Below, one piece after another: positions 7,206 through 8,937 of a stretch of 64,000 nucleotides of DNA (positions are counted from its first letter, which is position 1; each line of letters starts with the position of its first letter). Both the position numbers and the translations under genes were made by a program. Source of the DNA: Escherichia coli (GTDB taxonomy: Bacteria; Pseudomonadota; Gammaproteobacteria; Enterobacterales; Enterobacteriaceae). The DNA is taken from the NCBI RefSeq assembly GCF_030384885.1, contig NZ_CP128613.1; one strand, written 5' to 3'. The notes beneath the pieces are model-generated. The model was not told the origin of the DNA. It made no database searches and was given only the letters and a program-made list of their open reading frames with translations.

Positions 7206-7399
7206 GTACGGGCGTCCAGCCAGATGAATAAAACGCGCGCAAATATGCGTCATTTTTTGACGTGCATCAAGTTTTTTCACCAGTTTGAGAAAAAATCATC
7301 AAACAGCAACTTGCCCTTATCCATCTTCAGAATGAGTATTATTGCGGATTTTCTTAACCCGTACTATACACATAGGGGCAATGATAAAAGGTGGCAAAA

Positions 7400-7495
7400 A
7401 TGAATGTTTCCAGTAGAACTGTAGTACTGATAAATGTCTTTGCTGCTGTTGGTTTGTTTACTCTTATCTCTATGAGATTTGGCTGGTTTATTTGA
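7400..7495 (+). CDS. yncL: 31-aa single-TM small protein, consistent with YncL
   Basis: Not in ORF track (<60 aa). ATG at 7400 preceded by aaggtgg SD; translation MNVSSRTVVLINVFAAVGLFTLISMRFGWFI then TGA at 7493-7495; hydrophobic core typical of small membrane proteins. Confidence 0.6.
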   Translation: MNVSSRTVVLINVFAAVGLFTLISMRFGWFI

Positions 7496-7894
7496 TGTAG
7501 TGATTTTGCACGCAGCACGTACTGTCAGAGAAATCAGTGCTCTGACAGTACGCAAGATCATCTCATACTCTCCAGGTTTACAACATTATCCTTAATATTT
7601 ACTTCTTTTTGCTGACATCTACATTGAAATAAGTAGAAAACATCCCCCTCCTATCGTCCTTACAGACAGCTTACTGATTCAAAGGGAACTTTGTTTTCAC
7701 ATTTTTCTATCATCATTACTTTAGACGCGCGGGGTCTATAAATGCTTTATACTTTCAGGGAATAAAGTAAATATAAAAAGATGGCATAAAGTATATGCAT
7801 GGCAGGATGTTTGCAACCTCCTTGAGGACGCTGTCCCATTGAAATTGCAAACCCCGCACTGGTTATCTGCCCATTTATCATGTAAAACAGACAA

Positions 7895-8704
7895 TTATAG
7901 GTCTCTGAATATCTCAGAAAGATTGAATTTTTTATAGTCCCTCTCTTGAATATTTCCATTTGATATCAATCGATTCATCTCTTCAACAAAATAATTTATA
8001 TCATCACATTTGTTATTATCCGGAAGATCTGAGTAATTATAATTCCACCACTTTATTCTCAACAATTCATCAATAATATTTGAATCAAATCTAAATCTGA
8101 TTATTTTTGCAGGAACTCCTGCAACTATGGCATATGGTGGCACATCTTTGGTAACAACGGAATTGGCAGCAATAACAGCACCATCACCTATTGCGATGCC
8201 ACCTTTCAATACAACATCATTTCCTATCCAGACATCGTTTCCTATAATCGGATTTTCAGGTTTGGTAATGAATGGTTTCAATGTCCAGGGCCGTTCGAAC
8301 TCACTCAAGGCAAATTTATCAAATTCACCGTTATAAGTCATCATGTGAGTAGTAAAACGATTCATAGGATGATTTCCACCCATTATTTTTACATTTGATG
8401 CAATACTACAAAATCGTCCTATATGTATATTCCCTGAAAAATGACAAGTTGGAAATGAAAATGCACCTACACTGGAAAAATTTTTTACAGGCATTGTTGA
8501 ATATTCTTCAGCAATAACATTCTCTTCAATTGATATTTTGTCACCTTTTGAGAAAAGAAATAAATTCCTTTCTTTGTAAGACTTCTTCCCTTTATGATTT
8601 AAAAATATTTTATTATCCATGCAAAATTCAAAGTGTTTTTTCGTCCACCTAAAGGTAATGGTTTTATTTTTATCTTCCGTGAATTTATATAACTGTACGT
8701 TCAT
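7895..8704 (-). CDS. Hexapeptide-repeat (left-handed beta-helix) acetyltransferase, XAT/Vat-like (streptogramin A / xenobiotic acetyltransferase family)
   Basis: 269-aa ORF in a visibly AT-rich segment. Motifs [53 protein letters not shown] and IKWWNY closely resemble the conserved core and C-terminal region of Vat/XAT enzymes. True start uncertain: no strong SD at the first ATG, internal ATGs possible. Confidence 0.6.
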   Translation of the reverse strand: [269 protein letters not shown]

Positions 8705-8937
8705 ACTAAAGATATCTACTTTTACTTATAAATTATTAGTTGAATAACGATACTCTAAAGTCTTCTATGAATCAACCATGACAGGATGAAAAATCACCAT
8801 CATACCTTTAGCGCATAATAGTCGTTTAACTTTTCCACTCGTTTTAATGTATTCATTCTTATTAATCGCCAATGACTCAAAACTTCAAACGATAGTGGCC
8901 ATCATATAATTTCATATAACAGCCACTAACATTTAAC

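Follow-up and report, generated by a model that had tools for sequence, protein, structure and literature searches.

A CatB-related O-acetyltransferase of the XAT class on a single-gene, AT-rich islet between yncL and patD of Escherichia coli

The nearest described relatives of the protein considered here are members of the xenobiotic acetyltransferase (XAT) class: the streptogramin acetyltransferases VatD and VatA, the chloramphenicol acetyltransferases of type B (CatB), PaXAT, and the aminocyclitol N-acetyltransferase ApmA. A His/Trp pair is general in acetyl-CoA-dependent beta-helix O-acetyltransferases, among them MAT, GAT, VatD, NeuO and OatWY (PMC3046976). NeuO is encoded by a prophage in E. 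coli and O-acetylates a surface glycan (PMC3046976). ApmA has been described as the sole XAT with an extra N-terminal region, and shows that XATs can gain unexpected antibiotic substrates (PMC7885111). The contacts of VatD with virginiamycin M1 comprise Tyr37 and Asn92, which form hydrogen bonds, together with Tyr54, Leu93 and Leu108 (bioRxiv 10.1101/2025.01.31.635826). How does a related protein from the E. coli chromosome compare with these? The gene in question occupies positions 7895–8704, minus strand, of a 64,000-nucleotide stretch of E. coli DNA (the window; contig NZ_CP128613.1 of assembly GCF_030384885.1). It lies between yncL and patD, and RefSeq names its 269-residue product, WP_001102745.1, a 'CatB-related O-acetyltransferase'.

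What kind of enzyme is it? That the gene is intact and under selection, and that it encodes an acetyl-CoA-dependent O-acetyltransferase of XAT fold, is well supported, the enzymatic activity being a prediction from sequence. An earlier note on this DNA had described a 269-residue hexapeptide-repeat protein; both the core motif that it quoted and the C-terminal IKWWNY are present. Pfam recognizes hexapeptide repeats only (Hexapep), and these tandem repeats place the protein in the left-handed beta-helix acyltransferase superfamily. The AF2 model of the monomer has a pLDDT (predicted local distance difference test) of 92.8. The best solved relative by sequence is VatD (E 7e-30, 34% identity over about 170 residues), followed by VatA, several CatB proteins, ApmA and PaXAT. 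The top 16 sequence matches in the PDB and the top 49 Foldseek matches are all Vat, CatB, PaXAT or ApmA. Sugar acetyltransferases, for example MAT and LacA, match far more weakly and in the C-terminal repeats only.

In the sequence alignment His82 of VatD corresponds to His112, and Trp121 of VatD to Trp159. In the family alignment every one of the 63 homologues has H112, and all or nearly all have W159 and the D157-V158 motif; variation at the W-W pair (219–220) is rare. The catalytic His/Trp pair, together with nearest structures that are XATs, also over the C-terminal helical region (helices 208–217, 236–248 and 262–268 in the model), assigns the protein to the XAT class. In the mechanism that we propose, the histidine would sit on a loop that protrudes from the beta-helix and act as general base, facing the tryptophan of the neighbouring subunit; by homology the enzyme is probably a trimer. 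Since the His/Trp pair is generic, it establishes the chemistry and not the substrate, and is no pointer to Vat. The earlier note had been prepared to give up its reading if the best matches were non-XAT hexapeptide transferases lacking the catalytic histidine, or if the GC content were no lower than that of the flanks. The best characterised matches are XATs, the histidine is there and the GC content is low, but this test is not a discriminating one.

Does the protein belong to one of the curated families? Against the NCBIfam model for Vat (NF000311) it scores 126.7 bits, where the cut-off is 300; against that for type B chloramphenicol acetyltransferase CatB (NF000490), 104.1 bits, where the cut-off is 350. 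The match to ApmA (NF000084; 81 bits, cut-off 550) extends over ApmA residues 94–257 only, with no homologous N-terminal domain. The best NCBIfam match, the phosphonate-operon family phn_thr (TIGR03308), also falls short at 131.9 bits (cut-off 201.65), and membership of a phn (C-P lyase) operon was rejected, the neighbours being yncL and patD with no phn genes. The sugar O-acetyltransferase models WbbJ (67.7 bits, cut-off 243), LacA (58.6, cut-off 347) and Maa (52, cut-off 314) match the C-terminal repeats alone. A profile of the family itself scores about equally with CatB (149 bits for 6MFK, the best), VatD (136), PaXAT (124) and ApmA (121), as expected for a sister lineage inside the XAT class. 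By these sequence measures the protein is a member of a large subfamily of 250–270 residues without a characterised member, distinct from Vat, CatB, PaXAT and ApmA. Of the likeness to Vat and other XATs seen by the earlier note, the XAT-class fold and the aligned catalytic His112 have stood; membership of the Vat, CatB or ApmA families has not, the scores lying below all three cut-offs.

With Vat (VatD 1KHR, VatA 4HUS) the protein shares the XAT fold, the catalytic histidine, the acetyl-subsite tryptophan and the C-terminal I-K-W-W-N, but the loop following the histidine reads R-M-D-G-S-T-Y-P-F in Vat and P-x-x-R-F-T-T-(S/H) here, and both termini are longer here. The CatB and PaXAT enzymes (1XAT, 6MFK, 8J40), the source of the RefSeq name 'CatB-related', are alike in fold and catalytic arrangement; the present protein differs in its extra terminal regions and in being neither integron- nor plasmid-borne. 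Compared with ApmA (7JM1), the N-terminal region is shorter, at about 60 residues, and has no detectable homology to that of ApmA. The polysialic-acid O-acetyltransferases NeuO and OatWY resemble the protein in their beta-helix, their dependence on acetyl-CoA and their His/Trp active site, but the sequence match is weak (43–63 bits), the quaternary outline differs, and a heptad-repeat, phase-variable N-terminus is not found here. As a prophage-encoded enzyme acting on a surface glycan, NeuO is a functional analogue for those relatives of the present gene that lie in prophages and polysaccharide clusters. The true family is the 'CatB-related' subfamily itself, with members in Pectobacterium fontis (WP_039347938.1), Providencia, Kluyvera, Citrobacter and Cedecea that are 47–79% identical over their full length. 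They share an N-terminal F-R-W...H motif and the C-terminal tail, and differ in their genomic settings.

The VatD contacts were followed through an alignment whose numbering was checked against His82, Trp121, Ser68, Pro71 and the other residues named in the preprint. Both hydrogen-bonding residues are replaced, Tyr37 by Thr70 and Asn92 by Met122, at positions where the alignment is uncertain in the loops. Leu93 corresponds to Thr123, Asp39 to Pro72 and Tyr54, conservatively, to Phe84, the loop alignment again being less certain. The loss of these contacts is suggestive evidence against the binding of a streptogramin.

How much longer is the protein than Vat? The earlier note had put the N-terminal surplus at about 100 residues. 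By alignment with VatD it is about 33 (query residue 61 aligns with VatD residue 28), and the C-terminal surplus is about 20. In the model some 55–60 residues precede the beta-helix; they form one strand and one helix, followed by further strands. On the strength of the 63-sequence alignment and the model we place the N-terminal extension of the subfamily at codons 1–60 (positions 8525–8704, minus strand). Its motif, F-R-W-x3-H-x-E-F/Y ... I-F-L, is conserved in that alignment. A profile of residues 1–64 found no relative in the PDB at E ≤ 10 beyond chance matches, ApmA included. Representative clusters matching the protein at E ≤ 1e-30 number 657, many of them aligning from query residues 10–30 onward, and the full-length structural matches in AFDB (template modelling score 0.75–0.88) all carry automatic names. 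Two extensions of its own, an N-terminal cap some 60 residues long and a helical tail at the C-terminus, define the subfamily.

Is the gene functional? We compared alleles from four carrier lineages, in all of which the coding sequence is intact. Synonymous divergence (dS) ranges from 0.03 to 0.25, and the ratio of nonsynonymous to synonymous divergence (dN/dS) from 0.05 to 0.14. Such values indicate purifying selection, and we conclude that the acetyltransferase gene is functional. Over codons 1–60 the ratio is 0.03, a constraint from which it follows that the N-terminal extension is translated. In the same four lineages the dS of patD is 0.07–0.19, comparable to that of the acetyltransferase gene. 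The islet alleles are as diverged as patD, and the gene is therefore old and not a recent import.

The gene stands in DNA of unusual composition. The interval 7281–8937 has a GC content of 0.337, whereas 1181 windows of the same size elsewhere in the 64 kb average 0.494 (s.d. 0.032). At z = −4.9 this is the lowest value of its size in the window, and the low GC is a real observation, far outside the local background; the AT-rich segment between ortT and patD that the earlier note had pointed out is thereby borne out. In windows of 200 bp the GC content is 0.27–0.42 from about 7300 to 8900 and 0.48–0.58 on either side (flanks 0.503 on the left, 0.530 on the right). The coding sequence of the acetyltransferase has a GC content of 0.319, and of 0.263 at third codon positions, where patD has 0.533.

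Where does the accessory DNA begin and end? An alignment was made of the window, a further carrier (O103:H2 strain 129) and an empty site (strain 4FA), and the junctions were compared in four carriers and three empty sites (K-12-like strain 4FA, O157:H7 and O25:H4). The islet so delimited spans 7591–8936 or, equivalently, 7602–8947; it is 1346 bp long, counting one repeat copy, with a GC content of about 0.33. It is bounded by an imperfect 11-bp direct repeat, of which the left copy is CTTAATATTTA (7591–7601) and the right copy CTTAATGTTTA (8937–8947), the latter being the stop codon and last codons of patD. Empty sites retain one copy of the repeat. The earlier note had treated the AT-rich segment as one unit. 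The acetyltransferase islet is indeed accessory; yncL and a 13-bp hairpin next to it, which the note had overlooked, lie outside the indel, belong to the core and are kept in strains without the acetyltransferase.

Of 5426 complete E. coli genomes, 5415 have a match to a 2.2-kb query across the interval. Coverage of the query reaches 80% in 1152 of these; the remaining genomes match its two ends only (39% of the query). Searching with the islet alone gave 1155 genomes of the 5426 (about 21%), 1144 of them with at least 80% of its length. The islet is nearly always present as one copy, adjoining patD, at one chromosomal site. Taking the best match of each record, identity to the window is at least 99% in four, 95–99% in one, 90–95% in 1136 and 80–90% in 14. 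Among the carriers listed, UPEC69 and several chicken isolates are about 92% identical, and strains of O111:H8, O103, O121:H19 and O177:H21 about 90.5%. The gene is split in two by IS1 in H118 (NZ_CP148466.1) and H123 (NZ_CP092244.1), and the copies in H129 and H130 are truncated; these are occasional inactivation events.

A fixed site of presence or absence and an atypical GC content are what a horizontally acquired islet would show; mobility genes and signs of recent transfer were not found. Neither in nor beside the islet is there an integrase, an insertion sequence (IS) element, a tRNA gene or a long terminal (inverted) repeat, and, apart from the 11-bp junction repeat, short repeats are at chance level. 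The horizontal acquisition suggested by the earlier note is thus plausible for an accessory islet of atypical composition, but it would be ancient, with dS up to 0.25, like that of patD. The earlier note also thought silencing by H-NS probable; what the sequence itself shows in this respect is the AT-richness.

If the islet is old, how did carriers and empty sites come to coexist? All four carriers have one form of the left junction and all three empty sites another. Simple insertion, or deletion between the repeats, does not account for this split of junction haplotypes. The two forms (window 7572–7602) differ at 8 of about 20 bases to the left of the repeat, with zero variation within either class even though dS in the adjacent gene reaches 0.25, and we conclude that no simple recent deletion from an extant carrier haplotype gave rise to the extant empty sites. 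patD itself hardly differs (dS 0.012) between O103:H2, a carrier, and strain 4FA, which has the empty site. In our reading, one old insertion has been kept as a presence/absence polymorphism and shuffled by recombination in the flanks; its polarity as a gain is tentative. The gene would have entered the yncL–patD spacer once, early in the history of E. coli, with an 11-bp duplication of the end of patD, and would have been held since then, as a polymorphism of presence and absence, under purifying selection.

In what company is the gene found elsewhere? The closest relatives, at 62–79% identity, are in Citrobacter, Cedecea, an enterobacterium and Enterobacter sp. Ag1, and are single-gene orphans whose sites in the chromosome differ. 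In Citrobacter the gene is flanked by a GNAT gene and a PNP/MFS/Tsx group, in Cedecea by a chemoreceptor gene and DUF1889/colicin genes, and in the enterobacterium by ybhL and ybhQ. A genome pattern scan found close relatives in further Citrobacter genomes, in Enterobacter sp. Ag1 and in a 'Raoultella' metagenome-assembled genome (MAG). The same scan, which looked for exact peptide words in a single genome of each species and so gives weak evidence of absence, found none in other Escherichia species. At 51% identity the homologues of P. fontis and P. brasiliense lie inside the waa cluster for the core of lipopolysaccharide (LPS), where the Pectobacterium gene is co-directional with a waaL-like gene, genes for glycosyltransferases (GT) of families GT9, GT4, GT8 (two) and GT2, waaA and coaD. 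The Providencia rettgeri homologue (55% identity) is in a prophage, after a tail gene and divergent from a GT52 glycosyltransferase gene. In Kluyvera georgiana (52%) the homologue ends a prophage that has P2-type tail and baseplate genes, and comes immediately after the genes for the tail fibre and for tail-fibre assembly. In the same range of identity, 47–55%, the Dickeya copy adjoins a phage-type terminase and primase, and the Rahnella and Apirhabdus copies are orphans. At about 40% identity, copies in Alteromonas (with a pyruvyltransferase gene and RfbA) and Aureibaculum (with a Wzx-like gene and FnlA) are in polysaccharide clusters, and a Vibrio copy is an orphan. The 16 longer, multi-domain relatives that were scanned include single members with GT8, Caps_synth/Gly_transf_sug, GT92, GT2 or ATP-grasp domains. 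Fusions that retain the N-terminal extension were tried as Rosetta stones and proved uninformative (P0157, with two ATP-grasp domains, and P0124, with an unassigned C-terminal region). Nothing useful came of an NCBIfam scan of the unnamed genes around the homologue in Pectobacterium, Providencia and Kluyvera.

In a neighbour-joining tree, a single distance tree without support values, the orphan clade of E. coli, Citrobacter and Cedecea is sister to the prophage clade of Providencia and Kluyvera, and a group of Pectobacterium, Dickeya and Brenneria stands further out. Among 50,697 phage records there is no match of at least 60% identity. PADLOC gave no match, and PHROG one, to a family without known function. 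True plasmids in PLSDB hold no high-identity copy and no link to resistance cassettes; the lone 96% 'plasmid' match, NZ_CP141089.1, was rejected, being the 4.94-Mb chromosome of strain KE47, an accession that also stands among the E. coli genomes.

What, then, is the acceptor? It would most likely be the hydroxyl of a carbohydrate, either an intermediate of LPS or another envelope glycan or a glycoside, and not streptogramin A or chloramphenicol. For this acceptor class, its phage-derived variant included, we put the chances at about even. We lean towards it because of the settings of the relatives in several independent lineages, the missing Vat contact residues and the precedent of NeuO. Several considerations pull the other way. 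The literature searched gave no demonstrated substrate for any member of the subfamily, and acceptor specificity need not hold at about 50% identity. The loop residues that correspond by alignment to the acceptor pocket of Vat differ between clades, H120-M121-M122 in E. coli and S-x-x in most relatives. The VatD contacts were mapped through loops, where the alignment is less certain, and all the characterised proteins nearest in sequence are antibiotic-modifying XATs. Neither the E. coli gene nor its closest relatives have a neighbouring glycan gene, and an orphan layout is usual for chromosomal detoxifying acetyltransferases. Lastly, O157:H7 lacks the gene and O111 and O103 carry it, so that its presence does not obviously track one type of LPS core.

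It is possible, if doubtful, that the enzyme instead modifies drugs or other xenobiotics in the manner of Vat or CatB, O-acetylating a streptogramin-A-like macrolactone, an amphenicol, an aminocyclitol or a plant or microbial toxin and so conferring a cryptic intrinsic tolerance. VatD, VatA, CatB, PaXAT and ApmA do stand nearer to it than MAT and LacA, it retains both the catalytic His/Trp pair and the WW motif at the C-terminus, and the gene occurs as a monocistronic orphan in E. coli, Citrobacter, Cedecea, Rahnella and Apirhabdus; ApmA is moreover a precedent for an XAT with an added N-terminal region and an unexpected substrate (PMC7885111). Against these must be set scores far under the curated Vat, CatB and ApmA cut-offs, the exchange of Tyr37 and Asn92 for Thr70 and Met122, an N-terminal extension without detectable similarity to that of ApmA, the lack of any high-identity plasmid or phage copy and of linkage to a resistance cassette, and the relatives in LPS-core and polysaccharide clusters and at the tail-fibre ends of prophages. 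E. coli is intrinsically insensitive to streptogramins, owing to its envelope and to efflux, and selection for a Vat activity is therefore hard to see. The streptogramin-like acceptor of the earlier note was overstated; given where the relatives lie, in LPS-core and polysaccharide clusters and at prophage ends, a carbohydrate is at least as likely. One specific form of the carbohydrate reading, which we think unlikely but worth stating, is that a domesticated, phage-derived, cytoplasmic O-acetyltransferase attaches an acetyl group, unnoticed until now, to a conserved intermediate of an envelope glycan (LPS core, for example) in about one-fifth of E. coli. Another variant would make the gene a former lysogenic-conversion gene, the single-gene remnant of a lost prophage, domesticated to acetylate an envelope glycan and thereby mask a phage receptor or antigen. 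Its sister clade in the neighbour-joining tree is prophage-borne, at a position typical of serotype-converting genes; the Dickeya copy is beside phage or satellite genes; NeuO again provides a precedent; and the AT-rich composition is like that of the gene pools for surface polysaccharides, which are AT-rich. That tree, however, is a single one without support values, no phage remnant, att site or integrase flanks the E. coli islet, and the phage, PADLOC and PHROG searches returned no high-identity match, no match, and a sole match to a family without known function. We regard this variant as distinctly unlikely. Could the gene, finally, be a silent or decaying relic, an H-NS-repressed leftover without a current role? 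The AT-rich segment, the weak Shine–Dalgarno sequence and marginal promoter-like site, the absence of the islet from about 79% of strains and the few copies disrupted by IS1 or truncated would all suit a relic. The dN/dS values of 0.05–0.14, at dS up to 0.25, make one highly improbable, as do the full-length open reading frame (ORF) in four diverged lineages, the still stronger constraint on the N-terminal extension (0.03) and the roughly 1144 genomes carrying at least 80% of the islet.

That the gene exists is not new. The exact protein is already public on 175 contigs as 'MULTISPECIES: CatB-related O-acetyltransferase [Escherichia]' (UniRef A0A0L7ADF7), and members of the UniRef cluster occur also in Shigella flexneri, some of them labelled 'antibiotic acetyltransferase'. 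No publication was found that deals with the gene or with any protein of the subfamily. It is an uncharacterised member of a known enzyme class on a single-gene islet. The labels 'antibiotic', 'CatB-related' and 'streptogramin' acetyltransferase are no basis for a prediction of resistance, because the protein fails every curated resistance-family test. The gene offers a tractable entry point into a widespread XAT subfamily that has no characterised member and whose genomic associations point to glycan modification. It is also a stable, selected presence/absence polymorphism of E. coli, with carriers among strains of O103, O111 and O121, which are non-O157 serogroups of Shiga toxin-producing E. 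coli. With a sugar of LPS or of the envelope as acceptor, the gene would matter for serology, vaccine antigens and susceptibility to phage; with a drug as acceptor, it would be a cryptic chromosomal resistance determinant. Should the acetylation of an envelope glycan by a phage-derived enzyme prove true, recognition by phage, antibody or serum would be altered, also in strains labelled O103, O111 and O121, and a very large XAT subfamily would have its first assigned function.

The layout of the neighbourhood was read from the RefSeq annotation of E. coli strain 2013C-4282 (NZ_CP027579.1), which is identical in sequence across the region; the 269-codon frame is also in the ORF list. On the minus strand lie ortT (7032–7205) and patD (8938–10362). 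yncL, on the plus strand at 7400–7495, encodes a stress-response membrane protein of 31 residues and is a core gene, present also in empty-site genomes. Between yncL and the islet, in carriers and empty sites alike, is a perfect 13-bp inverted repeat with a 9-nucleotide loop (7518–7552). This hairpin is probably a terminator common to the convergent transcripts of yncL and of patD or the acetyltransferase gene. Its loop differs in the O103:H2 allele.

The upstream non-coding part of the islet (8705–8936, minus strand) has a GC content of 0.30. It contains a candidate weak sigma-70-like site at 8759–8732, TTTAGA-16-AATAAT, and the Shine–Dalgarno sequence is weak. Promoter- and terminator-like sites in the islet region are not enriched over shuffled sequences, and are candidates only. 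By blastn, homology to the Citrobacter copy starts some 87 bp before the ATG and ends at the 3′ end of the gene; the DNA shared is essentially the gene itself. The downstream tail (7602–7894, minus strand; GC 0.38) has no conserved ORF, the alleles differing by indels, and lacks homology to the copies in Citrobacter, Cedecea and elsewhere. A scan of 6900–9100 with Rfam found no family; a lone sub-threshold match to a plant microRNA was dismissed.

Some further observations concern the locus and its relatives. The patD of the window strain is unusually diverged, with dS of 0.18–0.20 against O103:H2, THO-008, strain 746 and strain 4FA. These differences are densest in the central part of patD and sparse in its last 300 bp, beside the islet. 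The polymorphism of patD (dS up to 0.19) suggests old allelic lineages or recombination at the locus. A 1576-bp contig of a Collinsella MAG (JAIJJM010000727.1) encodes a protein of 96% identity, almost certainly through contamination of the bin with E. coli. The two Providencia rettgeri loci carry different cargo beside the acetyltransferase and GT52 genes, a DarT/NADAR (DarTG-like) pair in one, and in the other a reverse transcriptase gene and an ABC-ATPase-like gene, which may be retron- or defence-like; this prophage site has the look of a hotspot at which accessory and defence genes vary. The second-lowest GC content of the window, 0.405 over 1657 bp, is at 54701–56357.

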